Positions 1,303 through 52,731 of a stretch of DNA of 64,000 bases are shown here, one piece after another. Location: IMG/VR virus record IMGVR_UViG_3300026196_000005; one strand, 5' to 3'. The position numbers were made by a program, and so were the translations under genes. Numbering within the stretch: position 1 is the first letter of the stretch; each line of letters starts with the position of its first letter. The notes under the pieces are model-generated. The model ran no database searches. It was not told the DNA's origin and saw only the letters and a list, made by a program, of their open reading frames with translations. The stretch is from a virus.

Positions 1303-4300
1303 CAATAAAACTTTACATTTCTCCTGACTATACAGGGCAAGAAGGCGACAAACCAGACGGCGGCATTCGGCGGGTAATAGAAGCCATGCAAAAATACTTG
1401 CCTGAATTTGGTATTGAGATTGTCAATACACCAGAAGAAGCCGATATTATTAATGCACATGGGGCAATGCCGGTTACTAAATTTGACAAGCCAATTGTAA
1501 GCTCATGTCATGGTTTATATTGGGCAGATTATGATTGGGGTGCAACAATGCACCGCGTTAATCAGTTGGTTATCGAATCAATGAAACGGGCAAAAGCAAC
1601 GACTGCACCCTCATACTGGGTACGCAATGCCATTACACGGGGCATGTTAATTGACCCAAAAGTCATCTATCACGGTGTAGACATAGATGAATTTACACCT
1701 GATGACAATCCAGCCGACTGGGTATTGTGGAATAAGGCACGGGTTGACCCTATATCCGATCCAGCTCCATTAAATGAATTGGCGCGTCTTATGCCTGATG
1801 TGCGATTTGTTACCACGTATGGGGGTGAGCGGAAAAATGTAAAGATTTTAGATGCTGTACCATATGAGCGCATGAAAAGCATTGTTGCTAAAGCCGGTGT
1901 TTATTTGGCAACGACGCGGGAAACTTTCGGCATTGGCACATTAGAGGCTATGGCTTGTGGCGTGCCTGTAGTTGGATGGGCATTTGGTGGACAGGTAGAA
2001 ATTATTAAGCAAGGTGTAACGGGTTATCTGGTTCCAGAGGGCGATTATGAGCAGCTAGAAAAAGCTATTCGGCTTGCTCTAAAAAACCGCGATGAACTTG
2101 GCAAAAACGCACGGCAAGATGTTATTGAACGGTGGCAATGGCGGGATAAGATTGAACAATATGCCGATGTTTTTAAGTCGGTTTATGATATTCATTGTCA
2201 GCCAAAAGAGCCAAAAGTAAGTGTTATTGTTACGAATTACAACCTAGAAAAATATCTTGAAAGTTGCTTAGATTCAGTTGTGAATCAAACTTTTACCGAT
2301 TATGAATGTTTAATCGTCGATGACTGTTCAACTGATAGCAGTTTAGACATAATCGAATTGTACAATCCTCACAAGCAAATTACCTATCTAAAAACCCCAC
2401 AAAATACAGGGTTATCAGGTGCAAGAAACCTTGGATTCACCCATGCAAAAGGCAAATACATAATCTATTTAGACGCTGATGATATGCTTGCTCCAAATGC
2501 GCTAGAGGTTTTATCCAACGAATTGGATAAAGATCAAGGCATTCATATTGCCTATGGTCATTTAGATTTAATCAACGATGACGGCACGAACCAGCGGCGT
2601 AATGCTAATAAAGATAAAGACTTTTTCCCGCCTGAACAATATAGTTGGCGTGGGCAATTGGCGCATTTGAATCAGTTACCATATGCCGCTATGATGCGTA
2701 GAGAAGTGCTAGAAAACAGCGGCGGGTATCGTGTGCGAGATTCACGTAATGAGGATGCTATTTTTTGGGCGCGTGTTACCTCTTATGGTTATATTGCCAA
2801 GAAAGTTACGCAGGCATCAACTTTAATTTACCGCCTACGTGGTGACAGTAAATCAGCTAATGAGATGCGTAAGTTTGGCAAGGAACCGAACTGGCTAGCA
2901 TGGTTGCCATTTCGCTTTGCCGATAAAGCTAAAGATGGTGAGAAAATAAGCCAGCGGCATAATGGCGAAATTCCCAATGCTCAGATAGTACCATTCGGGG
3001 CGCAAGGTTTGCCGCCTCGTTCGTGGGCAAGATACGGTAAATATTGGAATGTCAGACACCATCAAAACCCGGTATTGTCGGTGATAATTCCAGTAGGGCC
3101 AAACCATAAAGAATATGTTATTGACGCTTTAGATAGTTTGATAGCTCAAGATTTCCAAGACTGGGAAGCCATTGTAGTAAATGATACTGGCGAAAAGTGG
3201 ACAACCATACCGGGTGCATCATATGCCCGAATTGTGACACCAAAAGAAAAACATCCTGATGCGCGTGGTGCGGGTGAAGCGCGTAATGCTGGTGTAAAAG
3301 CTGCCAAGTCTGGATTGATTGTCTTTTTAGATGCTGATGATTATTTATTGCCGGGTGCATTGTCTACCCTGTATGAAGCGTGGCAATCGACGGATGGCAA
3401 TTGTGTAGTTTATGGCGACTGGCTAGTACCTAAAGGCGATGAATTGCCAGACTATTACAAGTCCTATGATTTTACTTGTGACATAAACAGCGATGATGTA
3501 ATTTTGCGACGGATTATTCACCCGGTAACGGCTTTATATCCCAGATGGGCGCATGAAAAAATAGGTGGTTTTAATATCACAATGCCAGCATGGGAAGATT
3601 GGGATTATCAGATTAAGATGTATGCCCAAATTGGCTTATGTGGTTTGCGAGTTGAGGAAGCCATTTTAGCCTATCGTCCAAATACCGGGTTAAGGCGCAA
3701 ATATGCAGCGTTTGAGGAAGCAAGTCCAGAAAAAAAAGCTGCTGTGAAAGCAGAAAATGACAAGCTAAAGAAAATACTTTATAATGAACATATTGATTAT
3801 TACAAGAGGCGCAAACCAATGGCATGCAAAAAATGCCCACAAGGCAAACCGTATAACAAAGCACTGGCAGAATTGCCACAATCTGATTTTGAGGCACTCG
3901 TAGCTAGAAATGGAGATGGTATGATACTTGAATACAAAGGGCCGATGTCTGGCAAATTTACAGTAAAAGGCGGGGCAAGTGGTAAGTCCTATCGAACAAT
4001 GCTAACGAATGATGGCATGTTGCTTTTTGATGTGCATCCTCAAGATGCTGAATCATTGAAACAACGTACACGAAAAGGTCAACCGCTATGGGTTGAGTTT
4101 AGTTTACCAGAGCGAAATACCACATTAAAAACTGAACCGATTAAAAGTAATGCGCCAAAATTGCCTGTCAATGATATTGTTATGGATGACATTTGGGCAG
4201 ATGTACCAGTTAAAGCTGCTGGCATGGGCATTGATTCAAGCAATGTTGAAGCAGCGTTAAATGTCATGGTTCCAGAATTTGATACCATTGATGATTTTCG

Positions 4301-4421
4301 TATTTGGATGAAAACGAATCCAGAACCAGAGGATTTATTGGTTGTTTTGACAACTGAGAAAAATCAGGATAAGCCGCGCAAGACCATCATTAAAGAAATT
4401 AATCGGGCGTTGAATGGATAA
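1287..4421 (+). CDS. multidomain glycosyltransferase (GT4-like plus two GT2-like domains plus C-terminal extension)
   Basis: GT4 E-x7-E motif ETFGIGTLEAMACGVPVVG. Two GT2 signatures (VSVIVTNYN...LIVDDCSTD...YLDADD and LSVIIPVGPN...IVVNDTG...FLDADD). 1044 aa. Confidence 0.85.
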   Translation: MAHNMTIKLYISPDYTGQEGDKPDGGIRRVIEAMQKYLPEFGIEIVNTPEEADIINAHGAMPVTKFDKPIVSSCHGLYWADYDWGATMHRVNQLVIESMKRAKATTAPSYWVRNAITRGMLIDPKVIYHGVDIDEFTPDDNPADWVLWNKARVDPISDPAPLNELARLMPDVRFVTTYGGERKNVKILDAVPYERMKSIVAKAGVYLATTRETFGIGTLEAMACGVPVVGWAFGGQVEIIKQGVTGYLVPEGDYEQLEKAIRLALKNRDELGKNARQDVIERWQWRDKIEQYADVFKSVYDIHCQPKEPKVSVIVTNYNLEKYLESCLDSVVNQTFTDYECLIVDDCSTDSSLDIIELYNPHKQITYLKTPQNTGLSGARNLGFTHAKGKYIIYLDADDMLAPNALEVLSNELDKDQGIHIAYGHLDLINDDGTNQRRNANKDKDFFPPEQYSWRGQLAHLNQLPYAAMMRREVLENSGGYRVRDSRNEDAIFWARVTSYGYIAKKVTQASTLIYRLRGDSKSANEMRKFGKEPNWLAWLPFRFADKAKDGEKISQRHNGEIPNAQIVPFGAQGLPPRSWARYGKYWNVRHHQNPVLSVIIPVGPNHKEYVIDALDSLIAQDFQDWEAIVVNDTGEKWTTIPGASYARIVTPKEKHPDARGAGEARNAGVKAAKSGLIVFLDADDYLLPGALSTLYEAWQSTDGNCVVYGDWLVPKGDELPDYYKSYDFTCDINSDDVILRRIIHPVTALYPRWAHEKIGGFNITMPAWEDWDYQIKMYAQIGLCGLRVEEAILAYRPNTGLRRKYAAFEEASPEKKAAVKAENDKLKKILYNEHIDYYKRRKPMACKKCPQGKPYNKALAELPQSDFEALVARNGDGMILEYKGPMSGKFTVKGGASGKSYRTMLTNDGMLLFDVHPQDAESLKQRTRKGQPLWVEFSLPERNTTLKTEPIKSNAPKLPVNDIVMDDIWADVPVKAAGMGIDSSNVEAALNVMVPEFDTIDDFRIWMKTNPEPEDLLVVLTTEKNQDKPRKTIIKEINRALNG

Positions 4422-6408: not shown

Positions 6409-6423
6409 GTTTTGGAGGCAATA

Positions 6424-7938
6424 ATGGGAATTGACCGCGTAATAAGCAAAAGTAGCGATATTCGCGTATGGTTTATTGAAAATCGTGCGAATCCGGCAAA
6501 CAATGCAACGTATCAGGGATTAATGAAGTTTAATGACCCAAGTCAATCCTTAGGCGATGTAACAAAAATTGAGATACCAGATCCTAATCAAGCGGGACGT
6601 TTTATCGAAATTGACGAAATGCAGGGTAGTGAAGAGCGGGTATCATTTGGCATTATGGGACGTTACCCACGTGCCCAATCAGATATGAAACGTCTTGCAG
6701 AAAAACGATGCCAGCTTGACATTCAAGCGCATCTTGGTCGCTGTCGTGACCCGCAAGATTATAACGGTGGTTGGGAAAAAGTTATCTTTTTTGAAGCTAC
6801 CCGACTGACAAATTACTCAATTGAAAACTTTGGTGCAATTGAATCTGGTGAAGATAATCCAACAAACGAATCTGCTGATACCAATGCCGCACGATGGTAT
6901 GAGCGAGTACGTTTGAATTTTGCCGAACGTGCTACAAGCGACACATTTAACGAAGTGGTCGCTGTTCGTGTTTGTGATAGCAACGAGTGCGGTGATTGCG
7001 ATTCCCCCTCCGATGGTTGCCAACGTGTTTTCTCTGTTCAATTGGCGGCTGGCAATTCCCCCGGTGTATCCCCATCTGTAATTTATAGCGATGATGGCCT
7101 TCAAACAAATGGCCTGACTTTTATTGATACCTTGACAAGTTCTCAGGAACCATCTGACGCAGCTTGCATTGGCGATAATTTAGTAGTCATTTCAAATGAT
7201 GCTGGTTCTCTGAATTATGCCAATACGGGTGACATTTTACTGGGTACTGAAACTTGGGTTGAAGTTGCTACTGGTTTTGCCGTTGGTGGTGAACCGAATG
7301 CCATTTGGTCAATTTCTGCACGAGATACCTGGATCGTCGGAGATGGTGGCTATATTTACTACACGAATGACCCAACGGCGGGAGTATCTGCGCAAGATGA
7401 GGGCGTAGCAACTGCCCAAAATCTAGCAGATGTGCATGCTTATGATTCTCAAAATGTGGTCGCTGTAGGTGCATCAAATGCAGTGGTCTATACGAATGAC
7501 GGCGGCGGAACATGGGCAAGTGTAACTGGGCCTGCTGTCGGTGTAAATCTTACGGCGGTTTGGATGAAAGATGTAGACACATGGCTAGTTGGTGATGCTA
7601 ATGGCGCATTATGGTACACGAATAATGCCGGAACTACTTGGACGCAGCGTAATCTACCAATTTCTACTGATGAAATTGACGATATTGTTTTCCCGACTGA
7701 TTCAGTAGGTTATTTGGCCGCTCGTTTATCTGCTCCCGCTGGACGCATTTTAGCCACAATTGACGGTGGTAAAAGCTGGTACGTCATGCCAGAAGGCAGC
7801 GGCGCAATTCCCGACAACGATTACATTAATAGCATTGGTATCTGTTCAAAATCTTCACCCAGTATCGCGGCTAATACAATTTATGCTGGCGGTCTAGGTG
7901 CTGATGGTTCAGATGGCATTTTGCTGAAATTGAGCTAA
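6424..7938 (+). CDS. putative major tail (tube) protein with C-terminal BNR/Asp-box beta-propeller-like domain
   Basis: Sits immediately upstream of the chaperone pair and tape measure. GGAGG RBS 5 nt before ATG 6424 (the ORF track starts at TTG 6412). Asp-box-like repeats YTNDGGGTW, YTNNAGTTW, IDGGKSW. Confidence 0.5.
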   Translation: MGIDRVISKSSDIRVWFIENRANPANNATYQGLMKFNDPSQSLGDVTKIEIPDPNQAGRFIEIDEMQGSEERVSFGIMGRYPRAQSDMKRLAEKRCQLDIQAHLGRCRDPQDYNGGWEKVIFFEATRLTNYSIENFGAIESGEDNPTNESADTNAARWYERVRLNFAERATSDTFNEVVAVRVCDSNECGDCDSPSDGCQRVFSVQLAAGNSPGVSPSVIYSDDGLQTNGLTFIDTLTSSQEPSDAACIGDNLVVISNDAGSLNYANTGDILLGTETWVEVATGFAVGGEPNAIWSISARDTWIVGDGGYIYYTNDPTAGVSAQDEGVATAQNLADVHAYDSQNVVAVGASNAVVYTNDGGGTWASVTGPAVGVNLTAVWMKDVDTWLVGDANGALWYTNNAGTTWTQRNLPISTDEIDDIVFPTDSVGYLAARLSAPAGRILATIDGGKSWYVMPEGSGAIPDNDYINSIGICSKSSPSIAANTIYAGGLGADGSDGILLKLS

Positions 7939-8807: not shown

Positions 8808-11800
8808 ATGGCACTAGAGAAAATAGGGGTTGAAGCCACAATTGAGGGGTTGTCATCTTTCCGGCGCGGCATAGGCCAGATGGATGATGATGTTCGTGGT
8901 TTTGGCCGTTCTGCTGATGGTATTGTCCCTGGCTTAAATAGTATGGGTGATTCGCTGTTAAAAATTGGCGGCATTGCGGCGGGTGCGTTGGTGGCTGGAT
9001 TAGCAGCGGCTACGACTGGCATAATTGCTTTTACTGGTAGTGGTATCAAAGCGGCAATCGACATGGAAGATCAAATGGGCAACATTGCCGCTGTAATGAA
9101 TACCACGAAAGATGATATTCAGCCGCTATCTGATTTGATTGTTGATTTAGGTATTGATCCCGGCTTAAAAGTCACAGCCGAAGAAGCTGCGAATGCTATA
9201 GAACTATTGGCGCGTAATGGTTTGACCATGCAGGAAATCTTAGACGGCGCGGCAAGGTCTACCGTTTTGCTGGCAAATGCGACGGGTGCTGAATTTGGCA
9301 ATGCGGCCAATATTGCTACTGATGCAATGGCTATTTTTAATATCGAAGCTAAGGACATGCAAGGGGCAGTTGACGGCATAGTGTCAGTCACGACTAATTC
9401 AAAGTTTACCATTGACGATTACAGCCTAGCTTTGCGGAATGGTGGAGCCGCAGCGGCTATTATGAATGTGTCAATGGAAGATTTTAATGCTGTAATTGCT
9501 ACTAGTGCTGATGAAATGGGCAGCGGTATGAAGGCGGGTACTGGGTTTAGGAATTTCCTAACCAGATTAACGCCTGCTAGTGACAAAGCAGCAGAGGCCA
9601 TGCAGCAATTGGGGCTAGTTACATCTGCTGGTACTAATATGTTTTTTGATGCCAACGGGCAATTGAAAAGCATGGCGGAAGTAAGCGGCATTTTGGAAAA
9701 TGCACTATTTGGCACCTCCACTGCAATGGTTGAAGTGGGCGGTCGAACGGCAGCGCAAAATGAAGAACTTGCTAGATTACAAGGTATTTATAATCGTACG
9801 CTAATCTCAATTCAGGATTATGAAACAGGGGTAAAAGGTGCTGGTTTATCAGATGAGGCCAGAGCTAATAAATTAGAAGATTTGCAATTACAACTTGCCA
9901 ATACGGCGGCGGTTATGGGGCCATTAAACGCCATACAGGGTGATTTAATCGAAACAACTAATACCCTAACTGATGCCGAAAGAAGCGCGTACTTAGAAAC
10001 CATATTCGGGGCAGACGCTTTAGGTACTGCTATTGCTCTTTCCAAAGAAGGGGCAGATGGTTTTGCAGAATTAGCCGCGTCAATGTCGGAAACAAAGTCA
10101 GCAGCGGCGGCATTGGAACGAATGGATTCTGTTGCTGGTGTAATGGAAATTATTAGCAGTGTTATTGACGGTTTGAAACTACAAATTGGACAAGCATTTT
10201 TACCGCTTATTAGAGATTTGGCAGATAATTTTTTGGTCTTTGTTCAGAATGTCGGGCCAAAGGTGGTAAAAGCATTTGAAAATATATCAGGTGGTATTAG
10301 TGAATTTGTTAGTTTATTGCAAGATGGCGAATCGCCACTAGATGCTTTTTTTGGTGGACTGGAAAAAGGCGGCATATCAAAAGATTTTATTAAGCAATTA
10401 AAAGATGCGGTTAAAGCAATAGATGATTTTGTCACGCCAATTATAGAATTTGTAAAAGACCATGCAAAAGAATTTAAGGGCGCATTAGTTGGTATCGGTG
10501 CTGTTTTGGGAGCTGGTATTATCGTATCCGTTCTCACCACAATTGGCGGTTTAATTGCTGCTTTAATTTCACCTATCGGCTTGCTAATTGTTGGATTTGC
10601 TGCACTTGGTGCGGCAATATCTCATTTTGGCGGTATTCAGCAGATTATTGAAAACATTCGCAATTTTATAACTGAAACTGACTTTGCCGCTTTGGGGCAA
10701 GATTTAATCACAAAATTTTTAGAGGGAATGTCTAATTTAGGCGAGTCTTTTGGAACATGGGCTGGCAACCTTTTAGTATCAATTACTGAATCAATAAATA
10801 ACATAGATTGGATAGCAGTAGGTGAAAGTGTCATTACATTTATTGGCAATGCTATAGCTGGGGCGGTTGGCTTAATTGCATTGGCAGTTACGGGATTATT
10901 TAATTTTTTCAAAGGAACCTCTGACTCGCAAGACTGGGCAAGCATTGGATTAGATTTATTAAACTCAATTTTAGATGCTTTATCTGGTTTTGTTGCTGGT
11001 GTATTGCCTGTCTTACAGGGTTGGTATCAATCATTTATCAGTTGGGTTCAGTCGGTTGATTGGCTGGCAATTGGCAATTCAATTGTCACATTTGTTTTGA
11101 ATGGCTTGAATAACTTTATTTCATTCGTTGGGGAAACACTATCGGGCTGGTGGACTTCGTTTACAACATGGGTGGATAGTGTTGACTGGGTGCAAATTGG
11201 CCTAAATATTGTGATGTTTGTCATCGAAGGTTTAGTAAATTTTGTAGCAAATGTAGCCGAAACTCTAGGCACATGGTATCAGGCATTTGCTGACTGGGTA
11301 GAATCAATCGATTGGAAACAGATCGGCTATGATATTGTCACTTTTATTATTGATGCATTTCAATTCTTTAATGAGGAAGTACCAGCAACACTTGATCAGT
11401 GGGCGCAAAATTTCGTTGACTGGGTAACCGAAACCGACTGGAAACAAATGGCAATCAATCTGATTGTCGATATGGTAGTCGGTTTGGGTGAATTCTGGTT
11501 TTATGCACAGCCTAAAATTCAGGCATGGTGGACTTCAATTAAAGACTGGTTTGATAGTATTGACTGGGCAGCATTGGGACAAACTATTATAGATGGTGTA
11601 GTAAGCGCAATTACTAATGGAGCCGCAGCTATTGCAGGTGCCATTGGCGATATGATACAGGGTGCTATTGATGCCGCAAAAGATGCATTAAATTCCCACT
11701 CTCCATCAAAGGTATTTTATGATATTGGCACAAATATCGGTCTAGGTTTGATTGGTGGCATTAATGCTATTGCGCCATCGGTGCAAGAATCAATCGCTGC

Positions 11801-12602
11801 TTTATTTGATATTGGCGGTGCATTGGGTGGAATTGGCGGCGGTTTTGTTAATCAATTGAAAAATGATATTTTGCCAGAATTAGAAGCGGCGGTTGAAAAT
11901 AGGCAATTCAATCTTGATTCATTGATGTCTAGTTTTACCGATAAATTTGGGATAGAAACCGATCCGACGAGTTTGGTCAATGCGTATTTTGCCGCAATTC
12001 ATAGCGGCAATACTGAAATGCAAAAAGATATTGAGTCCATTTGGCGCGTACAGGGTGAATTAAACGGAGCAACAGCGGAATATGAACAAGCACAAGCCAG
12101 CATTGTGGCATTGCAAAAAGCACAAGCCGACCTTGCATTTTTAGAGCAGCAGCAAAAATTACTTGATTTGATTACCGAAAATGGGCTAAATGCAAAGGAT
12201 ATTTTAGGCGGTTTGGAGCTTGGCTTGGGGGCAGATACACAAGGATTAGTCGAGGCCATGACCCGTGCAATTCAGGCAATTATTGAACAGGCGAATGACC
12301 AATTGCAAATTGCCTCACCATCTGGCGTATTCAAACAAATTGGCAAATACATTACAACTGGTTTGGCGGAGGGCATTGATCAAACCTCTACCAGTCCGGC
12401 ACAGGCTATGGAATCAATGATAAATCGCATGGTACAACCTGTGCAAAGTCAGGCGGCTATGCCATCGGTAATCAATCAGCCATCGACTACTACCGTTACC
12501 AAAACAGCACAAGTTGATATGTCTGGTATGCAAGTTGGGAATGAAATGGATTTACAATTCTTGGGTGACTTCATTTTGCAGAAAGTTTCAGAGGCTATCT
12601 AA
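8808..12602 (+). CDS. tail tape measure protein
   Basis: 1264 aa, Ala/Gly/Ile-rich. N-terminal TP901-type core-like region (AAVMNTTKDDIQPLSDLIVDLG...AANAIELLARNGL), TM-like central segments, W-periodic internal repeats, position after the chaperones. Confidence 0.9.
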   Translation: MALEKIGVEATIEGLSSFRRGIGQMDDDVRGFGRSADGIVPGLNSMGDSLLKIGGIAAGALVAGLAAATTGIIAFTGSGIKAAIDMEDQMGNIAAVMNTTKDDIQPLSDLIVDLGIDPGLKVTAEEAANAIELLARNGLTMQEILDGAARSTVLLANATGAEFGNAANIATDAMAIFNIEAKDMQGAVDGIVSVTTNSKFTIDDYSLALRNGGAAAAIMNVSMEDFNAVIATSADEMGSGMKAGTGFRNFLTRLTPASDKAAEAMQQLGLVTSAGTNMFFDANGQLKSMAEVSGILENALFGTSTAMVEVGGRTAAQNEELARLQGIYNRTLISIQDYETGVKGAGLSDEARANKLEDLQLQLANTAAVMGPLNAIQGDLIETTNTLTDAERSAYLETIFGADALGTAIALSKEGADGFAELAASMSETKSAAAALERMDSVAGVMEIISSVIDGLKLQIGQAFLPLIRDLADNFLVFVQNVGPKVVKAFENISGGISEFVSLLQDGESPLDAFFGGLEKGGISKDFIKQLKDAVKAIDDFVTPIIEFVKDHAKEFKGALVGIGAVLGAGIIVSVLTTIGGLIAALISPIGLLIVGFAALGAAISHFGGIQQIIENIRNFITETDFAALGQDLITKFLEGMSNLGESFGTWAGNLLVSITESINNIDWIAVGESVITFIGNAIAGAVGLIALAVTGLFNFFKGTSDSQDWASIGLDLLNSILDALSGFVAGVLPVLQGWYQSFISWVQSVDWLAIGNSIVTFVLNGLNNFISFVGETLSGWWTSFTTWVDSVDWVQIGLNIVMFVIEGLVNFVANVAETLGTWYQAFADWVESIDWKQIGYDIVTFIIDAFQFFNEEVPATLDQWAQNFVDWVTETDWKQMAINLIVDMVVGLGEFWFYAQPKIQAWWTSIKDWFDSIDWAALGQTIIDGVVSAITNGAAAIAGAIGDMIQGAIDAAKDALNSHSPSKVFYDIGTNIGLGLIGGINAIAPSVQESIAALFDIGGALGGIGGGFVNQLKNDILPELEAAVENRQFNLDSLMSSFTDKFGIETDPTSLVNAYFAAIHSGNTEMQKDIESIWRVQGELNGATAEYEQAQASIVALQKAQADLAFLEQQQKLLDLITENGLNAKDILGGLELGLGADTQGLVEAMTRAIQAIIEQANDQLQIASPSGVFKQIGKYITTGLAEGIDQTSTSPAQAMESMINRMVQPVQSQAAMPSVINQPSTTTVTKTAQVDMSGMQVGNEMDLQFLGDFILQKVSEAI
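10800..11620 (+). repeat. degenerate in-frame tandem repeats (~40 aa period) inside the tape measure
   Basis: Six units of the type xDW-x2-(I/L/M)G-x2-I(V/I)-x-F...(W)...(SF/AF)-x-(S/D)W(V/F)-x-S(V/I)DW: IDWIAVGESVITFI, VDWLAIGNSIVTFV, VDWVQIGLNIVMFV, IDWKQIGYDIVTFI, TDWKQMAINLIVDM, IDWAALGQTIIDGV. Confidence 0.6.
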
Positions 12603-14590
12603 TGACGGATGCAATTTTAAGGATAACAGATGGCACTACCTATATTAGTTTGATTGACGAATCAAGCGGTTTTCATCTGGTTAATTGGGTTCCTGCTATT
12701 ACTGATTATAAAGGCGGCGGTATTTTTCAAGACCCGCCGTTAGCCGACTGGCGGCAATTGCGCGTGGCAAAATGGGCAACAGCACAGGAGCAATTTGGCC
12801 TGACAATTAACGGTCAAAATCCTGACAATGTTGCTTATAATTTGCAAGAGTTGCGGCGGTTGCTGGAAAAGGCAAATGCTTACTGGACAACTGATTGGCA
12901 GAATACACCTGTTTATCTAAAGGCAAAAGCGAAATGTGAGACTAATACCCGGTATTGTTTGGTGGTAAAGGGTCGCTTGGGAAATGACCAAAATTACTAT
13001 CGTCAACCGTTTACAGGCATTAAAACCACTATGCGAGATTTGCCGCTGGCAATTGAGCGGCGCGAGTGGTTGCAAGAGATACCGGGTTCTAGTAATGCAA
13101 TTGCAATTAGTTCTGTTGAGGATTATGAAAGCAATTCGTATGGCAATGTAGATAGTTCTGGTGTAAGGCAAGCTGTTACAACTGCTGATGTTTTTGTTGC
13201 CAACCGTAGAAATGTGGCAAATATTACAACAATTCAACAGTCAACAGCGGCAAATATTTGGGGAAGTGCCTTGCCGTATACTATTGTGGGGACTGGAGGA
13301 AGTAACGAAACCGAGTTCGGAATTGATACCAGCTTAACTGATTCTGGGCCGTTTTCTAATATTGTATTTGATATTTCACAGGCGCAAGTTGGGGGGACTG
13401 GTGGTGTATGGGAATATTGGGATGGTAGTGCATGGACTGCACTTTCTATTATCAGAGATGAGACAGATTCATTTTTGAATACTGGCGTTAGGGTTGTTTC
13501 ATTTCAGCAACCTAACGACTGGGCAACAAATACGCCAATTGGTGTGACAGATGGATATTTTATTCGTTTTAGATATGCGACAACAAATGCAACACAAGCG
13601 GTAATTATCCAAAATAGACAACCGTATAGCGTTGTTTGGCCGTATGTAGAAATTCAAAGCAATATTATCGGTGGTGATATTCCTGCATTGGTTAAAAGCA
13701 TTGTACAAAATCGCTATATTGATATTAACGACCTAAACGGGATTGGCCGTATTCAAAGGGTGATTGTCGGGTTGCGTAGCATGGATCGCGGTGCTGATTT
13801 TACGCCAGTTCTGAATGTAGCAGATGAACAAAATCCAGCAGGCATATCGATAGCATTGGGCGGAGCATCTTTTGTTGACGACTCGGAATCGCCAACCGGA
13901 CGCGCTGCACAATCAACAACGACAGGCACAAAGGTAATCGCATTTACAATAGATGAAACATTGGCTAGTCAGTATTTAGGTTCATATCATGTTTGGCTTA
14001 TTACTGGTACGGGCATTCCTGTAGACACGACATTTTACATTCAATATACTATTGGCAGTACCGGGTCAACTGTTGAATTGCCTTCTGTTGGAAGGGAAGC
14101 CATAACTATTTCTGATAACTTTGCAATTGATTTAGGGCAATTGATTTTAGCTCCCACTGAATTTAATGATCCTGATGAAATAGAAATACGAATAAATATT
14201 GTTTATGCTAGTACCGCTACAATAAATTATTGGCAAGTTTGGTTAATGCCAATTGATGAATACGCTGCTGATTTTTATCCCGCAGGAACATTTAATACTG
14301 ATAGAATTTTAGGCAATGCTAATATAGGATATTTAGATTCAATATCAGTAAGAAAAGGTAGAAATTCGCCATCTGGTATCGTGCGCGAAACTACTAATAA
14401 TGATGTAGCTATGAATTTACAAGTAGTTGCCAATGGTCAATTTATTTTACAGTCTGGAAAGCAGCAAAGGCTATATTTTTTGACTATGCGACGATCTTCT
14501 AATCCGCAATGGCAAATTGGAACCGAGTTAATGATGTCTGTGCAACTTGAAACTGTGCAGCGTTATTTATCCCTCCGAGGCAACCGATGA
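12602..14590 (+). CDS. tail/baseplate structural protein (distal-tail position)
   Basis: 662-aa ORF; its start overlaps the tape measure stop (ATGA). Assigned by position only. Confidence 0.45.
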   Translation: MTDAILRITDGTTYISLIDESSGFHLVNWVPAITDYKGGGIFQDPPLADWRQLRVAKWATAQEQFGLTINGQNPDNVAYNLQELRRLLEKANAYWTTDWQNTPVYLKAKAKCETNTRYCLVVKGRLGNDQNYYRQPFTGIKTTMRDLPLAIERREWLQEIPGSSNAIAISSVEDYESNSYGNVDSSGVRQAVTTADVFVANRRNVANITTIQQSTAANIWGSALPYTIVGTGGSNETEFGIDTSLTDSGPFSNIVFDISQAQVGGTGGVWEYWDGSAWTALSIIRDETDSFLNTGVRVVSFQQPNDWATNTPIGVTDGYFIRFRYATTNATQAVIIQNRQPYSVVWPYVEIQSNIIGGDIPALVKSIVQNRYIDINDLNGIGRIQRVIVGLRSMDRGADFTPVLNVADEQNPAGISIALGGASFVDDSESPTGRAAQSTTTGTKVIAFTIDETLASQYLGSYHVWLITGTGIPVDTTFYIQYTIGSTGSTVELPSVGREAITISDNFAIDLGQLILAPTEFNDPDEIEIRINIVYASTATINYWQVWLMPIDEYAADFYPAGTFNTDRILGNANIGYLDSISVRKGRNSPSGIVRETTNNDVAMNLQVVANGQFILQSGKQQRLYFLTMRRSSNPQWQIGTELMMSVQLETVQRYLSLRGNR

Positions 14591-15810
14591 AAATTGCAAT
14601 ACTGACAGATTTATTAAATTATGACCCGGCATACTCCATTTGTGGAGCCGTGAAAAACCAATTGCTTATGCTGCAAATGCGCGGTTATAACCCTGTATTG
14701 GTTGTCAAAAATGGCTATGATGATTCATTCCGTCAATATGGCAATCCTAAAATAATTGAGATAAATCAGGGCAAATGTGACAATGTTGTCAAAATTGACA
14801 ATGATACAGAATCGGAAATTGAGCATATTTACAACGAACTCATGACCACCATACCGGGTTTTGATGCCATCGTAACGAATGACTTAATTTACCAGCCAGC
14901 AATGTGGAAAATGCACGTAGCAGCGCGGCGGTTTGCTATTGAAAATCCTGATATAAAATGGCTTCATTTGGTTCATTCTGCCACTAAAATGGATGTCATT
15001 AGGCAAGCTGGAAAATATCAGAAAGAATTATTAGGCAAGTTTCCTCATTCAACTTTGGCGGTTTTTGACAATGAGGAAAAGATACGTAAAGCGGGGTTGT
15101 ATGGCTACGAAGTCGATGAAACAGCGATAGTGCCTAATACGCTGGACATTACAGAATATTATGAGCCACTCACAAAAAAAGTAATTGCCGACAATAAATT
15201 ATGGCAAGCCGACATGATAGCAGTTTACCCGTGCCGATTAGACCGGGGGAAACAGCCACACATCGTTATAGAAATTTTTGAGCAACTTAACGAGATGGGT
15301 TTTTATGCGCCTGTCGTTGTGGCAGATTTTCACTCAACAGGCGGTGATAAAAAGACTTACCGTGATGAATTGCGCCAAATGGCCGGAATTAAAACGCCTG
15401 TCATTTTTATGTCAGATTATGCACCTTACCATGTGCCTCATAAGGTTATTCGTGAACTGTTTGAATATGGTGATATTCTGGTACATCCTAGCCGATCCGA
15501 AACTGATTCAATTGTAGCCATTGAAGCGGCATGGGCTAGATGCGGCTTGGTTTTGAATATGGACTTACGTCCGTTTCACCAGTGGCAGGAATTGGTGTGG
15601 GGCAAATTTAGCGCAAATATTGACATCACCACTGGTTTACTCGGCACAACTGAAACGAATTATGCAGATCGCAAAATGTACATGAAAAATATTGCTAATC
15701 AGATTGTTTATCATATGAGCAATAACCCTGTATTGGCGGGGCATGTGCGAGTGCGACAGGTGAAAAGCTTAGAGGCGGTTAGCTGCCAATTAGCAGCCGC
15801 ATTATCATGA
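14587..15810 (+). CDS. GT4-like (GT-B fold) glycosyltransferase
   Basis: ILVHPSRSETDSIVAIEAAWARCGLVLN matches the E-x7-E retaining-GT motif; 407 aa; start overlaps the upstream stop. Confidence 0.6.
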   Translation: MKIAILTDLLNYDPAYSICGAVKNQLLMLQMRGYNPVLVVKNGYDDSFRQYGNPKIIEINQGKCDNVVKIDNDTESEIEHIYNELMTTIPGFDAIVTNDLIYQPAMWKMHVAARRFAIENPDIKWLHLVHSATKMDVIRQAGKYQKELLGKFPHSTLAVFDNEEKIRKAGLYGYEVDETAIVPNTLDITEYYEPLTKKVIADNKLWQADMIAVYPCRLDRGKQPHIVIEIFEQLNEMGFYAPVVVADFHSTGGDKKTYRDELRQMAGIKTPVIFMSDYAPYHVPHKVIRELFEYGDILVHPSRSETDSIVAIEAAWARCGLVLNMDLRPFHQWQELVWGKFSANIDITTGLLGTTETNYADRKMYMKNIANQIVYHMSNNPVLAGHVRVRQVKSLEAVSCQLAAALS

Positions 15811-16310
15811 ACTATTTAGATATAATGCCAACCATACAGGGTTCAAAAATCTTGGTAACAGGGCCGCAAAGAAGCGGTACAACCATATGCGCTAAAATTC
15901 TAGCTCATGATTTGGGCTACAATTTTTACACTGAGGAACATATCAATATTAGCAGTTTTGAAGCTGCCAAAAAGATGGTTGAAACTCAAGATAAATTTGT
16001 TTTGCAATGTCCAGCAATTTGTCATGTCATTCATGAGTTGGATGCAACCATTATTATGGTAAGCAGACCGGTACATGAGATTGTAGCCAGTGAAGCAAGG
16101 ATTGGTTGGCAAGGTGAGCGGCAAAATGAATTGAAAAAATACAATCGCTCAAATGGTATTATTTCGCTGGTGAAATATCAGGCATGGTATACATGGCAAA
16201 AAGCATTGTGTAAGGAATCATATGAGATTGATTATCATTCGCTCGACTCTCATGAGCTTTGGGTGTCGATTGAAAAACGGCATGGTTTTGGCAAAAGGCA
16301 AACATCATGA
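15807..16310 (+). CDS. sulfotransferase-like P-loop protein
   Basis: ILVTGPQRSGTT resembles the 5'-PSB PAPS-binding loop, and SRPVHEIVAS resembles the 3'-PB motif; embedded between two glycosyltransferases. Confidence 0.45.
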   Translation: MNYLDIMPTIQGSKILVTGPQRSGTTICAKILAHDLGYNFYTEEHINISSFEAAKKMVETQDKFVLQCPAICHVIHELDATIIMVSRPVHEIVASEARIGWQGERQNELKKYNRSNGIISLVKYQAWYTWQKALCKESYEIDYHSLDSHELWVSIEKRHGFGKRQTS

Positions 16311-16972
16311 TTCACGTAATTATTCCTTGCTATTTGCTGCCTGATAACAATAATGCTTTGCTTAAGTGGACAGCGCGATGCGTTGAATCATTGCGTGAAA
16401 ATACATCTCAACCATACCGGGTTTTAATTATTGATAACGGTTCTCAAATGGGAACTGGCTATTTGATGGCAATTTCAACCAGTGGCTATTATCGGCGTAA
16501 TCCGTCTAATTATGGTTTTGCAAGGGCAGTCAATCAGGGATTAAAAATATCAATGGATGCTGACTGGATTGTAGTTGCCAACAATGATATAGAATTTTTG
16601 CCTAACTGGTTTGAGTATATGTCAAGCGCGTGGGATGAAAAGACGGGCGTAATATCCTCGCACCTACATGCGCACGATCCTGAACATAAAGCGGGTGTGC
16701 AAGATGCAACAGTTGGTACTATGTTTGGTGCGTTATGGATGACAAAACCCGGTATTGTGGTTGATGTTGGTTTGCTGGATGAAGGTTATAAGTTTGGCTA
16801 TTTTGAAGATCGGGATTATTGGCAACGTGTTTTGGCCGCTGGCTATACGATGAAAAAGGCAGGATGGTGTAACCATGCGGGAAATGCTACCAGTGGCAAA
16901 CTCAAAAACATGAATGAGTTTTTTATGGCAAATAAGAAACGATATGAGGAAAAATGGCAAATAAAATCTTAA
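16307..16972 (+). CDS. GT2-family glycosyltransferase
   Basis: IHVIIPCY...VLIIDNGS...VANNDIEF...YFEDRDYW: typical GT-A/GT2 layout, 221 aa. Confidence 0.75.
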   Translation: MIHVIIPCYLLPDNNNALLKWTARCVESLRENTSQPYRVLIIDNGSQMGTGYLMAISTSGYYRRNPSNYGFARAVNQGLKISMDADWIVVANNDIEFLPNWFEYMSSAWDEKTGVISSHLHAHDPEHKAGVQDATVGTMFGALWMTKPGIVVDVGLLDEGYKFGYFEDRDYWQRVLAAGYTMKKAGWCNHAGNATSGKLKNMNEFFMANKKRYEEKWQIKS

Positions 16973-17628
16973 AATCAATTGGCTTTATTGCTGGTTTGCT
17001 TTTGGCAATCTGGCTGTTTTCATCGGCAAGTGCTGAAAGTTCAACCATTTCATACTGGGTAATTACTGTGCGCGGCTCGTATATGGATGTCTGGGTAGAT
17101 TGTAATAGTGAAATAACCACTATTGAACATCTTGACGGCATGTCTCAGCCGGGTGGCTGGAATAAACATTCTATAGATGTTGACTTGTCTGGTTGTGATG
17201 TTTTGCGAGTGGGTTTTACCAGTGAATTTCCTCAAAATTCGTTGGGCTGGAAAATTAAAGGAATTGCAATAGATGGCGTTGTAATTCCTAATGGTTGTTT
17301 TGAGAATGGCGGTTTGACGGGATGGGAATTGCCCGATGTTGGATGGTCGCTATCTGTGGCAGGTGGTACTAAAAATCTAATACCAGAGGATTGCGAGGGA
17401 CGGTATGCTGCGAAGCATGGGCCAATTTCCACTAATGGCAATGGGACGGCAAATGTACCAGCCACAATTTTCAAAACTATCTATCCTGGTATAAAACCAG
17501 AGCCAACAGCTACCAGTAATGCAACAATGGAACCAACACTACAGCCAACAAATACACCTATGCCAACCGCCACAAATACCGGGTGTTTTTATAATCATTG
17601 CAACTATCTGCCAATATTGGGAAAATAA
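16954..17628 (+). CDS. signal-anchored/secreted beta-rich protein with Pro/Thr linker
   Basis: N-terminal hydrophobic segment ending SSASA. C-terminal PEPTATSNATMEPTLQPTNTPMPTATNT linker. Confidence 0.45.
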   Translation: MANKILKSIGFIAGLLLAIWLFSSASAESSTISYWVITVRGSYMDVWVDCNSEITTIEHLDGMSQPGGWNKHSIDVDLSGCDVLRVGFTSEFPQNSLGWKIKGIAIDGVVIPNGCFENGGLTGWELPDVGWSLSVAGGTKNLIPEDCEGRYAAKHGPISTNGNGTANVPATIFKTIYPGIKPEPTATSNATMEPTLQPTNTPMPTATNTGCFYNHCNYLPILGK

Positions 17629-19641
17629 ATGCCGACATTTGATGCAATAACAGTTGATGCTAGTAGCGCAAATCGCAGTAGTGCGTCATTTTCGCATACT
17701 ACAAGCGGAACTGATAGGACATTAGTTGTTATTGTAAAGTTGTTTTCAACCGTAACAAATCCAGTTACGGCAATTACCTATAATGGAGTGACATTAACGG
17801 CGCGTGTCCAGCGTGAATATAATTACACTGTAAACCGTTATTTAACTACTGAAATCTGGACATTAGATAATCCTGCTAGTGGTTCAAATACTGTTGCTGT
17901 TACACTCACTGGAACGGCAGTTGCTAGTGAAATATCGGCAATTAGTTACACGGGCGCAAATAATGGCGTAGGTGGGAATGTTGGTCAAGCCGATGGGACG
18001 GATACAAATCCAACGTGTACATTTACAACCGGAGCAGCTACTAGTCTAATTGTAGGTGGTGCTAATTTCTTGGGCGGTGATGGTACGCCATTTACACCTG
18101 GAACTAGTACAACTGAACGTAGTGACGGTGCTACTGGCGTTTCAACCTCAACTGATATTAGTTACACAGATGGTGATGAAACCGCAACGGGCGGAAGTGA
18201 CACATTAGATTTTACAGCTTCAACAAATGATGAATGGTCTATCGTTGCTATTGAATTGTTGGCAAGTGGTGGAGCAACGACGACAACGACGACAACGACG
18301 ACAACGACAACGACGACAACGACGACAACGACGACAACGACGACAACGACGACGACGACAACGACGACAACGACGACAACGACGACAACAACGACGACGA
18401 CGACGACTAGCACTACTACCACATCAACAAGCAGTACAACAATACTGCCAACTTTTGCCGCTACTATTGGCACATTTCATCAATCGGTTAGCCTATCAAT
18501 AAGTGCATTTGACCCGCTAGTTGTGGGCAGTTCATTGGTAGATGATTCCCTAGGCGACAAATTAGACAGCGGTACATACTCGCATACGATTAGCGCATTA
18601 GGTGGCTATGATTCAGCACTCATTAAAATAGTCGATTCGCAGATTGATTTAGAGGACTGGCTCGCTAATGGCCTAATGCGACATATTGAAGTTTATAATC
18701 CTTCACTGGTAAAAATTTGGGAAGGATTCGTAAATCAGATTGATATTATTTTAGGCGGATTGTCGGTAACTCGTGGGCCACTTTTGCAAGTTTCAAATAA
18801 TGTCGCCTTGACCTATTCAACAGTAGACACTACTGTCTCCCCTCCTGCCATTGGTATGAGGGCGACTACGGCGTTTAGCGGTGATACTGATAGCCAAGCC
18901 CTGTATGGTGTTTTAGAGTCTGTTTTGAGTGCGGGTGGAGTCAGCACAACAGAAGCAACAACAATACGTGATGTCTTTTTGAATGAGAATAAAGACCCGC
19001 AAACTAGCCAAAAATTAAACATTGGTCAAGGCGGCGGTATTACATTAAGTCTAAATTGTTTGGGTTACTCGCACCTGTTCAAAAAATACATTTACAATCA
19101 AACGGCCAGCACGGGAACTAATGATTTAGATGTTGTTTTAGCGGCTATTATTGCCGCCGATCCTAATAGCATTTTTAGTACGTCAACCAGTAAAATAACA
19201 GCCAATACTTTAGCAGTTAAGCAATATTTGAATGACAATGCCAACGCCTGGAGCCTCATACAGGGTTTAGTGGCGCGTGGTGATAGTTCAGACAATCGTT
19301 ATATTTTTGGTATCTATAATGGTAGAGTGCCAACATACGAAGTCATCCCGACTGATTTTGAATATCAGCAGCGATTAAGCGACCCGGCGCAAAGGGTAGA
19401 AACTTCACAAGGAATCGAGGTCAAGCCGTGGGATGTAACGGCTGGAAAGTGGCTATTTGTACCTGACTTTTTAATTGGAAAAGTGCAACCAACTACATTG
19501 AGACTTGATCCGCGTATGATTTTTATCGAATCGTTGACTTATACAATGCCGTGGGGACTTGCCATACAGGGTGGAAAGACTGATAAATTAAGCCAGAAAT
19601 TAGCTAAGTTGGGATTAGGTGGAATAGGGAGTGGTGTCTAA
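17629..19641 (+). CDS. tail fibre/baseplate protein containing a 44-residue poly-Thr tract
   Basis: 670 aa. N-domain, then T44 followed by STTTTSTSSTT, then a ~400-aa C-domain. Lies in the tail module after the GT cluster. Confidence 0.5.
   Translation: MPTFDAITVDASSANRSSASFSHTTSGTDRTLVVIVKLFSTVTNPVTAITYNGVTLTARVQREYNYTVNRYLTTEIWTLDNPASGSNTVAVTLTGTAVASEISAISYTGANNGVGGNVGQADGTDTNPTCTFTTGAATSLIVGGANFLGGDGTPFTPGTSTTERSDGATGVSTSTDISYTDGDETATGGSDTLDFTASTNDEWSIVAIELLASGGATTTTTTTTTTTTTTTTTTTTTTTTTTTTTTTTTTTTTTTTTTTTSTTTTSTSSTTILPTFAATIGTFHQSVSLSISAFDPLVVGSSLVDDSLGDKLDSGTYSHTISALGGYDSALIKIVDSQIDLEDWLANGLMRHIEVYNPSLVKIWEGFVNQIDIILGGLSVTRGPLLQVSNNVALTYSTVDTTVSPPAIGMRATTAFSGDTDSQALYGVLESVLSAGGVSTTEATTIRDVFLNENKDPQTSQKLNIGQGGGITLSLNCLGYSHLFKKYIYNQTASTGTNDLDVVLAAIIAADPNSIFSTSTSKITANTLAVKQYLNDNANAWSLIQGLVARGDSSDNRYIFGIYNGRVPTYEVIPTDFEYQQRLSDPAQRVETSQGIEVKPWDVTAGKWLFVPDFLIGKVQPTTLRLDPRMIFIESLTYTMPWGLAIQGGKTDKLSQKLAKLGLGGIGSGV
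18277..18447 (+). repeat. imperfect (ACG ACG ACA)n trinucleotide repeat encoding poly-Thr/Ser
   Basis: 44 consecutive Thr codons at 18277-18408 (ACG/ACA/ACT), then Ser/Thr codons to ~18447. Confidence 0.95.
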
Positions 19642-20448
19642 ATGCCAGGATATGCGGTGCAAAATCAGAATGAAGATCAAATATCGCTTTTATCGGCGCA
19701 TTTTAGACTGCTTTATAATCCGACTTATGCAATGGCGGATGCAATTGGCATGTTGCAAATGTTTCCTGGTATTGTGGGAATTTGGCCTGGTAGTTTATCG
19801 GGTGGTGGCAGTGGTAATCAAGACATGCTGGTAGATACATCAGGTAATGGACTACATTTAACTAGAAACGGATCGCCTGTTTTTAACACCGCGCAATTGC
19901 GGAACTTTGTGAGTTTTAATGGTTCCACAGATTACTATACCCATGCCGATGCTGCAATATTTGATATTTTAGGAACGGAGGCGCATATTGCCACAACTAT
20001 TCGAGGTTTAACAATGGGCGCGTGGATATTCCCTGACAACACTCTGCCAGTGGCCACAGAACAGATTATTACTAAGGGTGGGACAAGCGCATATTTAATT
20101 AGCAGAGGAACAACGGGGCTGGTTAATTTGTGGATTAGCGATGGTGTTACGCCAATTAATGTGAGCAGTGCAGCAGTAGGTAGTGGGTGGTCATTTATAG
20201 CTGGTAGATTTGATCCGTCAACAGAGCAGAAATTATGGGTAAACAATACAACATACACAAATACAACCAGTATTCCGGCATCAATTGCTAATGTAGCTAA
20301 TCCATTCTCGATTGGGGCGAATGGCGGCGGTAGTAGTTTTTTTGATGGTAGTATTGCATTAGTGTTTTTAGCACAGGCGGCAATACCAGATCAATTTATC
20401 AATGCTTATTTTCAAATGACCGCTCCGCTATTTGGCATTAGTGTATAA
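19642..20448 (+). CDS. LamG/concanavalin-A-like lectin domain protein (candidate receptor-binding protein)
   Basis: FNGSTDYY...LTMGAWIFPD...LWVNNT...FFDGSIALVFL follows the LamG-jellyroll pattern; start abuts the previous stop. Confidence 0.55.
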   Translation: MPGYAVQNQNEDQISLLSAHFRLLYNPTYAMADAIGMLQMFPGIVGIWPGSLSGGGSGNQDMLVDTSGNGLHLTRNGSPVFNTAQLRNFVSFNGSTDYYTHADAAIFDILGTEAHIATTIRGLTMGAWIFPDNTLPVATEQIITKGGTSAYLISRGTTGLVNLWISDGVTPINVSSAAVGSGWSFIAGRFDPSTEQKLWVNNTTYTNTTSIPASIANVANPFSIGANGGGSSFFDGSIALVFLAQAAIPDQFINAYFQMTAPLFGISV

Positions 20449-20830
20449 TGTTTTTATGGCTATCACTGAAAAGCGCATCGAAGAATTAGAAGTGATGATA
20501 AATGACCTAAGTGAACAGGTGCGGCGCAATCATGTCATCTTAAATGGTGATACAAATATAGCATTTTCATCTGGCGTTTTGTGGCGATTAGAGAGAATAG
20601 AGAATAAGTTTATGCAACAATCAGACCTAATCAAAAATTTAGCTGTTGAGTTACGGCAGCAAAATGAACAGCGTGAAAAAGAGCATGATATTCGTGAGGC
20701 TAGAGAACAAGAGCGCACAGAAATTTTCCAAAGAATGGAAAAATGGGTTAAAATACTAGGGCCGCTGTTAGGCGGTGGGTTAGGTTTTCAAATTATTTTT
20801 GAAATTGTAAAAACATTAAATGGAGGTTAA
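20432..20830 (+). CDS. coiled-coil protein with C-terminal TM helix (lysis-cassette accessory?)
   Basis: Charged heptad-rich sequence then ILGPLLGGGLGFQIIFEIV. An alternative start is ATG ~20456. Confidence 0.4.
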   Translation: MALVYNVFMAITEKRIEELEVMINDLSEQVRRNHVILNGDTNIAFSSGVLWRLERIENKFMQQSDLIKNLAVELRQQNEQREKEHDIREAREQERTEIFQRMEKWVKILGPLLGGGLGFQIIFEIVKTLNGG

Positions 20831-20834
20831 TCGA

Positions 20835-21131
20835 ATGGATAAGTTACAATTAGCAACATTAGCAGGTGCATTGTTATCATTACTTTTTGAATATGTACCG
20901 GGTTTGTCTGGATGGTACGAAGCAAAAGATGAGGCTGTAAAACGGCTAGTTATGTTAGGCGCAATTGTGGCCGTTGCTGCTGGTGTTTATGGTCTATCCT
21001 GTTTTAATACGCCCTGGGTTTATGTTGAGTGTACCACTGACGGATTGTTTGAGCTTTTAGGCGCGGTTGTATTTGCCATTGTTGGCAACCAGACTACTCA
21101 CAAGATTGCCAAAAAGCCAGCAAAGGTATAA
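20835..21131 (+). CDS. holin-like membrane protein
   Basis: ~98 aa with 2-3 TM helices and a basic C-terminus (HKIAKKPAKV). GGAGG lies 8 nt before ATG 20835. Upstream of hydrolases. Confidence 0.45.
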   Translation: MDKLQLATLAGALLSLLFEYVPGLSGWYEAKDEAVKRLVMLGAIVAVAAGVYGLSCFNTPWVYVECTTDGLFELLGAVVFAIVGNQTTHKIAKKPAKV

Positions 21132-23157: not shown

Positions 23158-23203
23158 TAACCCTGTATGGTGTTCGCCCTAATGCCATACAGGGTTTTTT
23201 ATT
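23158..23203 (+). terminator. intrinsic terminator made from an inverted pair of the iterated motif
   Basis: AACCCTGTATGG (23159-23170) pairs with CCATACAGGGTT (23185-23196), followed by TTTTT. Confidence 0.8.
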
Positions 23204-52640: not shown

Positions 52641-52731
52641 TGTTTTACTGTGTTGTTTGTTATAATAATAGAAATTGCTAGTCGCGACGCGGTAACGTCC
52701 ACTAGCCCTCCGATTGAAAAGGAATCGAAGC

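Follow-up and report, generated by a model that had tools for sequence, protein, structure and literature searches.

In a 64,000-nucleotide (nt) stretch of viral DNA (IMG/VR record IMGVR_UViG_3300026196_000005; hereafter the window, to which coordinates refer unless another locus is named), three genes for putative sugar-modifying enzymes lie in a late tail operon, close to a gene for a 670-residue tail protein with 44 consecutive threonines. The window is a siphovirus-type phage genome with ~41% GC. We consider it probable that these enzymes, a GT4-type glycosyltransferase (GT), a sulfotransferase-like protein (ST) and a GT2 glycosyltransferase, O-glycosylate the Thr/Ser tract in the cytoplasm, possibly with sulfation, and that the tract forms a mucin-like stalk on the tail hub. 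The original prediction, made from the letters of the window, had named the tract as a substrate of the adjacent GTs and as a stalk on the tail, and three comparative results, all of them results of genomic linkage, support this proposal. First, the enzymes, an add-on domain of the tail protein and the tract are jointly present or absent in close relatives. Second, tracts accompany the GT4 across lineages and are missing from GT4-less loci. Third, the tract belongs neither to the family of the hub nor to that of the add-on domain.

The hub protein and its Thr/Ser tract

The 670-residue protein (p670; 17629-19641, + strand) consists of a 216-residue N-terminal add-on domain (residues 1-216, 17629-18276, +), the tract T44+STTTTSTSSTT (residues 217-271, 18277-18441, +), and a hub core (residues 272-670, 18442-19641, +), confirming that two domains are joined by this tract. 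The threonine run is exactly 44 residues long (residues 217-260, 18277-18408), and the mixed segment that follows it ends at 18441; the end at 18447 that had been given takes in two more residues, Ile-Leu.

Only the C-terminal ~390 residues of p670 are conserved. An AlphaFold (AF2) model based on 60 homologs has a pLDDT >90 over residues 285-665, and all 12 Foldseek matches in the PDB with E≤0.001 are baseplate hub proteins (probability 0.99-1.00). The matches include 9h4p, 8v3w, 3cdd, 2z6b and 1wru, and the proteins matched include those of the HFTV1 tail, diffocin, the Anabaena and Algoriphagus contractile injection systems, the MuSo2 43-kDa protein, T4 gp27 and Mu gp44. This modelled fold, of the gp27/Mu gp44/VgrG type, and the position of the gene after those for the tape measure protein (TMP) and a 662-residue tail protein (p662) identify p670 as a tail-tip baseplate hub of the Tal/gp27 type; of the two locations first proposed, tail fibre or baseplate, the baseplate is upheld and the fibre is not. 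Thus p670 resembles gp27, Mu gp44 and Tal hubs in the fold of residues 285-665 and in the gene order TMP, distal tail protein, hub. It differs from them in carrying an N-terminal add-on on a Thr stalk, an exception confined to GT4-bearing phages, whereas most of the 317 proteins found in a search of the family are core-only, at 375-400 residues. The add-on domain matches phrog_553 ('minor tail protein', E=4e-6) and is presumed to be a minor-tail-protein-type module, an adhesin. Its family comprises 1,849 representative homologs, mostly stand-alone proteins of ~235 residues or domains in big tail proteins, and 95%-like copies occur in two other loci (L135 and L136); in the AlphaFold model this domain, which is without alignment depth, has a pLDDT <50.

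As originally described, the tract is encoded by an imperfect ACG/ACA trinucleotide repeat: there are 30 ACG and 17 ACA codons (counts that include the 11 mixed residues after T44), with ACG-ACG-ACA units and periodicities of 9 nt and 42 nt. Since ACG accounts for just 17% of Thr codons elsewhere in the genome, the ACG-rich composition indicates recent expansion of a short unit in the window tract. The tracts of relatives are codon-diverse. In-frame variation in tract length, which had been predicted for such a repeat, is seen among related genomes. In two loci from different samples (L020 and L021), the proteins match completely over the 402 N-terminal and 380 C-terminal residues that were compared but differ by a 16-residue indel inside the tract, and tract length also differs among the window, L011 and L012.

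We find it very unlikely that the tract, or the junction at it, arose through misassembly of low-complexity DNA. Many related contigs do end in or beside such tracts, and the exact 670-residue protein is absent from the protein collection that we searched. JGI, ENA and Logan assemblies, however, span complete tracts in one open reading frame (ORF) (L003, L020/L021/L023, L039, L040, L047). Similarly, contigs from three sequencing runs (L011, L012 and L013, the last two with the same protein) start inside in-frame Thr/Ser tracts of at least 81 (L011) or at least 44 residues (L012, L013), with mixed codons, and continue into hub cores 93% (L011) and 90% (L012, L013) identical to that of the window. 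In L136 the ORF for the N-terminal domain of the p670 homolog is still open at residue 205, where the contig stops. We therefore rejected an artefact, on the strength of the several independent assemblies that span complete tracts. The tract is real, with counterparts at the same position in at least three other samples; it is the exact copy number of 44 in the window, known from this assembly, that is uncertain.

A number of contigs (L011, L012, L013, L019, L025, L036, L059, L027/L048, L136) end inside or just before DNA that encodes Thr/Ser tracts, and short-read assemblies and protein catalogues will consistently hold genes with such tracts in truncated or split form.

Linkage of the cassette to Thr/Ser tracts

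Three syntenic relatives (L009, 61 kb; L010, 63 kb; and L014), with hubs 78%, 70% and 79% identical to that of the window, keep a big GT, DUF1360, p404, p508, the chaperones, the TMP, p662 and the downstream tail protein p268. All three lack the GT4, the ST, the GT2, a 224-residue protein encoded after them (p224), the add-on domain and the tract; the p662 homolog is followed directly by the gene for a core-only hub, which bears out the idea that the cassette was inserted between tail genes. The N-termini of the relatives' hubs (e.g. MTTIPTFKQS, P0009) align to the window sequence TTILPTF...HQS just past the tract, and so the extra DNA, from 14587 to ~18441, is a single block. The joint absence of enzymes, p224, add-on domain and tract from close relatives argues that this 3.85-kb stretch is one module acquired in the late tail operon. 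In two other samples (L135 and L136), the GT4, the ST (83%), the GT2, p224 and the add-on domain are all present. In two loci with a GT4 80-82% identical to that of the window (L016 and L017), a Methyltransf_24 gene and an extra GT2 replace the ST-like gene, and the add-on domains are different.

The link between the GT4 and the tract extends across lineages. We took 80 of the 417 metagenome matches to the GT4 family, together with 36 hub-family loci from IMG/VR, and scored every ORF for tracts, defined as stretches of ≥25 residues with ≥80% Ser+Thr. After clustering of the GT4 proteins at 90% identity, clusters with ≥3.5 kb of downstream sequence were considered informative. A tract ORF is found in 9/9 informative clusters with ≥43% identity to the window GT4; these tracts are 30 to >380 residues long and lie on the same strand, 1.3-7.6 kb downstream. 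By comparison, 0/41 GT4-less loci of the hub family (763 kb in total) have a tract (Fisher's exact test, p=4e-10). Within the hub family, a GT4 occurs in just two phages, the window and L003, and tracts are confined to the same two. The 120 best hub homologs are all without a tract, and so are the 150 best homologs of the add-on domain; on this sampling the tract is a trait of neither family.

We consider it unlikely that the tract is a flexible linker, either unglycosylated or glycosylated by the host, and that the cassette modifies the add-on domain or another virion target such as the capsid or the tail tube. There is a known phage precedent for glycans on major capsid proteins (PMC11256854), p508, the likely tail tube, bears a surface propeller domain, and a distant clade of the GT4 family often occurs without nearby tracts. 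A linker would leave unexplained, however, both the joint gain or loss of enzymes, add-on domain and tract, and the contrast of 9/9 with 0/41; moreover, the capsid and tail tube genes are kept in relatives without the cassette.

The tract proteins of the different lineages have a common plan: a globular domain, a Thr/Ser tract, a short 'TTT-L-P/L' motif and a C-terminal tail part. The globular domains are LamG/ConA-like (L003, L018, L039, L040), DUF7483 (L003, L047) or DUF4082 (L064), and the C-terminal part in L020 and L047 matches Pfam Sipho_Gp37, a sequence family other than that of the window's hub core. The recurrence of the same tract design with another C-terminal family and with other add-on domains supports glycosylation of the tract by the linked enzymes. 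Three L003 proteins bear tracts, namely a secreted β-helix protein, the hub and the p662 homolog, and one cassette may therefore serve several substrates.

The p662 homolog of L003 is a distal-tail-protein homolog of 1230 residues with an N-terminal DUF7483 add-on; its gene and that of the β-helix protein, both with S/T tracts, occupy L003 4233-7925 and 11769-13469. An ORF of at least 766 residues at L027 18918-21215 (also in L048) is nearly all (Thr/Ser)n, in blocks of 140, 280 and 297 residues separated by a repeated ~25-residue motif (PPRR..VY.FFD..W), and lies 7.7 kb downstream of a GT4-GT2 pair.

Enzymes of the cassette and their possible targets

The GT4-like and GT2 gene calls of the original prediction have Pfam support, marginal in the first case and clear in the second. 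The GT4-type enzyme (14587-15810, +; predicted GT-B fold, Glycos_transf_1) passes PF00534 by a small margin (27.2 bits, cutoff 26.4, E=3.3e-6, residues 209-317); most members of its family carry a precomputed PF00534 match, and the EX7E motif, E305-x7-E313, is invariant in 35/35 aligned homologs. The family has 314 homologs, almost all on phage-like contigs, and several are natural GT4-GT2 fusions of ~650 residues. Among 185,579 species genomes there are 8 matches only, all with ≤37% identity, on contigs of metagenome-assembled genomes (MAGs) with scattered taxonomy, and this near-absence argues for a phage-specific job. No close solved structure was found; the best PDB profile match is 6kih (sucrose-phosphate-synthase-like, E=0.0024). 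A scan of IMG/VR with the single GT4 sequence gave no match, and alignment-based scans were required.

The GT2 enzyme (16307-16972, +; GT-A class, Glycos_transf_2) matches PF00535 with E=4.5e-15 (56.4 bits versus a cutoff of 23.3). The window and L003 share its nucleotide-binding motif, D43-N-G-S46, and its DXD-like motif, N93-D94-I-E96, and homologs 51-72% identical adjoin the GT4 in L003, L016 and L017.

The 167-residue P-loop protein encoded between them (15807-16310, +) had been called sulfotransferase-like, and its motifs and the Pfam matches of its family uphold that call, while its own Pfam score and an ambiguous fold do not. In its family, 29/41 members match PF13469 (Sulfotransfer_3) at E<0.01 (best 1.5e-7). 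A loop of the PSB type, G19-P-Q-R-S-G-T25, is invariant, is followed by T26 in the window (GPQRSGTT) and has no Walker lysine; R87 and S95, 8 residues apart and corresponding to the 3′-phosphate-binding Arg...Ser motif, are also invariant. The family profile aligns both motifs to PDB 2zq5, which we take to be the Mycobacterium tuberculosis sulfotransferase Stf1, with R87...S95 placed onto 'RPVETIMAS'. Kinase and sulfotransferase folds share a P-loop core, and Foldseek is ambiguous for this protein; we regard a sulfotransferase-like enzyme as plausible and as the better reading compared to a kinase, although unproven. The position of this gene is a variable one, taken in sister cassettes by Methyltransf_24 (L016, L017 and L020) or by an extra GT2 (GT2b), which fits a variable glycan-tailoring step. 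Both the GT4-GT2 fusions and the variable tailoring slot are as expected for a glycan-building pathway.

The last gene before the hub encodes the exported protein p224 (16954-17628, +), with a Sec-type signal peptide (MANKILKSIGFIAGLLLAIWLFSSASA, followed by E; maximum KD19 2.05) and a C-terminal Pro/Thr-rich segment. p224 has no family match in Pfam or PHROG, is conserved in L135 and L136, and falls in a 5-member cluster at 90%. It had been proposed as a second glycosylation substrate; the secreted appearance and the Pro/Thr segment hold, and p224 is a member of the module, but its export and its lack of a counterpart in most other cassettes weaken its candidacy as a substrate.

The three enzymes are all without hydrophobic or transmembrane segments, from which we expect them to act in the cytoplasm, the site of tail assembly. 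This bears on a further alternative, that the cassette remodels an envelope glycan of the host (lipid-linked polysaccharide, teichoic acid or S-layer glycan) for superinfection exclusion or progeny release and that its place in the tail operon is incidental. Combinations of GT4 and GT2 enzymes with methyltransferases and sulfotransferases are a usual feature of polysaccharide gene clusters, the PHROG labels of the module GTs are 'moron/auxiliary metabolic' and GtrB-like, and p224 is exported. We nevertheless think this improbable: the cassette has no membrane segments, flippase or polymerase, its expression would be late, with the tail genes, cellular genomes almost entirely lack the GT4 family, and the link to structural proteins with Thr/Ser tracts would be unexplained.

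Less likely still, and only a slim chance, is that the GTs glycosylate phage DNA, as in the T4-like hypermodification of hydroxymethylcytosine or hydroxymethyluracil. Phage GTs commonly modify DNA (e.g. 10.1101/2023.12.21.572611). The larger ORFs of the window, however, include no hydroxymethylase, TET or kinase-type base-modification genes, and only an N6/N4 DNA methylase; the cassette sits in the tail operon, and modification of DNA would leave the link to the tracts unexplained. DNA glycosylation was rejected, since base-hypermodification genes were not found among these larger ORFs.

Several points weigh against glycosylation of the tract by this cassette. The case is circumstantial, consisting of genomic linkage, and the window's tract length is that of this assembly. 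In the distant clade of the GT4 family (33-38% identity), a tract was found in just 2/17 informative clusters, although a few more loci of this clade have upstream tracts. The link is thus specific to the window's GT4 sub-family, and either the GT4 family does not universally act on tracts or the tract threshold misses other substrates. Shared host range could also partly confound the co-occurrence of GT4 and tract. PDB sequence and profile searches detected no similarity of the GT4 family to known protein O-glycosyltransferases, and a conserved 1044-residue multi-GT encoded elsewhere in the window (1287-4421) may be the actual protein glycosylase or may have a different target. With respect to sulfation, the ST falls below the Pfam cutoff for PF13469 (E=1.4e-4, 22.6 bits, cutoff 27; residues 15-52 on profile positions 2-39 of 216) and is half the usual size of a sulfotransferase. 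Its model (pLDDT 94) is closest in Foldseek to shikimate and gluconate kinases and Fap7 (TM 0.45-0.56), with SULT1C1 only at rank 48.

If the cassette does glycosylate the tract, the soluble GT4 would start O-glycosylation of its Thr/Ser residues in the cytoplasm, before or during assembly of the tail tip. The GT2 would then extend the glycan and the ST-like enzyme would decorate it, a step that an S-adenosylmethionine-dependent methyltransferase or a second GT2 would carry out in sister cassettes. The substrate would be the 55-residue tract of T44 and mixed Ser/Thr that joins the 216-residue add-on to the N-terminus of a trimeric gp27-like hub. As in mucin PTS domains, dense O-glycosylation would be expected to give an extended, protease-resistant stalk. 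The value for mucins is 0.25 nm per residue; with this value the stalk would be ~14 nm long, and three per virion would hold the add-on domains off the tail tip. The near-perfect ACG/ACA repeat would allow the length of the stalk to drift in frame by slippage or recombination.

The late tail operon, related systems and implications

The coordinates and ORFs originally given for 14587-19641 are correct, and inspection of the junctions showed that the tight packing of the genes is real. The p662/GT4, GT4/ST and ST/GT2 junctions are ATGA overlaps, the GT2 and p224 genes overlap by 19 nt, and the p224/p670 and p670/p268 genes abut as TAAATG. The late tail operon starts with the TMP gene (8808-12602, +; PF10145, E=5e-33; phrog_1272, E=7.5e-61). 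No convincing terminator was seen from ~8.8 kb to a strong terminator-like hairpin at 23159-23196 (+), which has a 16-bp stem followed by a T-run; as the first convincing one 3′ of the TMP gene, it appears to be the end of the late tail/lysis unit. The position of enzymes without transmembrane segments in a late tail operon, with ATGA overlaps and no internal terminator, is further support for glycosylation of a tail protein by the cassette.

The upstream boundary of the module is p662 (12602-14590, +), encoded directly 3′ of the TMP gene. It has no match in Pfam or PHROG and is the probable distal tail protein, by position only; its homologs sit between TMP and hub genes in L001, L009, L010 and L014. 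The downstream boundary is the 268-residue LamG/ConA-like tail protein p268 (19642-20448, +; PF13385, E=6e-10), with homologs directly 3′ of the hub gene in L001, L002, L010 and L014. Genes for two small membrane proteins and an M23 peptidase lie 3′ of p268. Upstream of the tail chaperones, the 508-residue p508 (6412-7938), likely the tail tube, has a C-terminal match to BNR/Sortilin-type propellers (PF14870, PF15902) and is kept in relatives. In mycobacteriophages, tail tube subunits as well as capsid proteins reportedly carry glycans.

The 1044-residue multi-GT consists of one GT4 C-domain and two GT2 domains, and the gene for a RIO-like kinase (259-1302) overlaps its gene. It is kept in L004, L009 and L010, relatives without the second island, and therefore represents an older, separate glycosylation function, possibly directed at the capsid or tail tube. 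In L009, which is without the GT4 island, genes for a HAD/PNK3P phosphatase, a SIS isomerase, a GHMP kinase and an NAD-epimerase, a heptose-type nucleotide-sugar pathway, follow right after the M23 lysin (14520-17557 of L009); this suggests that the sugars used by the conserved big GT are in some cases provided by phage genes.

Elsewhere, the window encodes a small and a large terminase, a Prim-Pol/D5 helicase, a DNA methylase and an M23 lysin. An IS605 OrfB/TnpB gene with a Cas12f-like TNB domain (52714-53910) separates the terminase genes from the gene for an 839-residue protein with a 2′-5′ RNA ligase-like domain (54352-56871). An imperfect GCT-rich tandem repeat (41805-41905; periods 9, 12, 27 and 39) falls within a small ORF (41493-41969), and a minus-strand block has genes for a second M23 peptidase and an FtsK/SpoIIIE-type ATPase (34981-35919 and 36662-37912), the latter unusual for a siphophage. 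Among 50,697 GenBank phages, no relative was found by megablast of 12000-21000 or by tblastn of p670. One hub homolog is labelled as from a 'Chloroflexi bacterium' MAG, which is only a hint to the host.

Virion glycosylation by phages has been described in mycobacteriophages (Che8, Rita and others), in which phage-encoded GTs glycosylate virion proteins (Freeman et al. 2023, Cell Host Microbe 31:1216, as cited in PMC11256854, PMC12582341 and PMC13313380). According to PMC11256854, glycans on capsid proteins form a shield, and GT genes lie near the genome end. The two systems are alike in that phage GTs, often with a methyltransferase, decorate, or in the window would decorate, structural virion proteins made in the cytoplasm. 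The window differs in its candidate substrate, a dedicated homopolymeric Thr/Ser stalk in a baseplate hub, in its distinct GT4 family, and in having enzymes and substrate in one contiguous module. The claim that such a system had not been described for phages was too broad with respect to virion glycosylation, but holds for the architecture: we found no report in the literature of Thr/Ser stalks in phage tail hubs tied to a GT cassette.

The closest functional analogue is the serine-rich-repeat protein (SRRP) system of Gram-positive bacteria. In serine-rich-repeat adhesins (Fap1, GspB, PsrP), a Ser/Thr repeat stalk displays a binding domain; GtfA/GtfB, a GT-B/GT4-type enzyme, initiates O-glycosylation in the cytoplasm, and GTs encoded beside the substrate gene extend the glycan. 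The window cassette follows the same logic of a stalk plus adjacent GTs, but has a Thr-dominated, homopolymeric repeat carried on a phage tail hub and has no GtfB-like partner. The window's GT4 family matched no GtfA or GtfB chains in a profile search of the PDB, and no SecA2/SecY2-like genes were seen among the window ORFs scanned. As judged from its genes, the cassette works like an SRRP system and is not a member of it. Eukaryotic mucin PTS domains are similar in that dense O-glycosylation of Thr/Ser-rich tracts gives bottle-brush stalks; they differ in their hosts and in the use, in animals, of GT27 ppGalNAc-transferases. Surface fibrils of giant viruses are glycosylated by machinery that these viruses encode themselves (PMC9614988), and we found no bacteriophage example of a mucin-type glycosylated stalk in the literature.

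We propose tentatively, as a wider reading that may well prove too broad, that a GT4-(methyl-/sulfo-transferase)-GT2 cassette is a widespread, phage-specific 'glyco-stalk' module. In environmental siphophages it would build mucin-like, O-glycosylated poly-Thr/Ser stalks of 30 to >380 residues on tail proteins, the tail-tip hub among them, with swappable lectin-type domains and with length tuned by slippage; in the window the glycan would be sulfated, and the product would be the first sulfated phage glycoprotein.

The hypothesis that the tract is glycosylated by its neighbours is directly testable by co-expression of the four genes in a heterologous host. If it is correct, it would explain why the assemblies of such phages are fragmented at these genes, and it would add a new, phage-specific family to the protein O-glycosyltransferases, one whose acceptor is a simple homopolymer and which is attractive for glyco-engineering. 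Beyond the capsid 'shield' of actinophages, virion glycosylation would then include a modular device of the tail, widespread among environmental phages. Phages would build their own mucin-like stalks at the host-recognition end of the virion, and these stalks would add a post-translational layer of determinants of host range and stability that is invisible to gene annotation.

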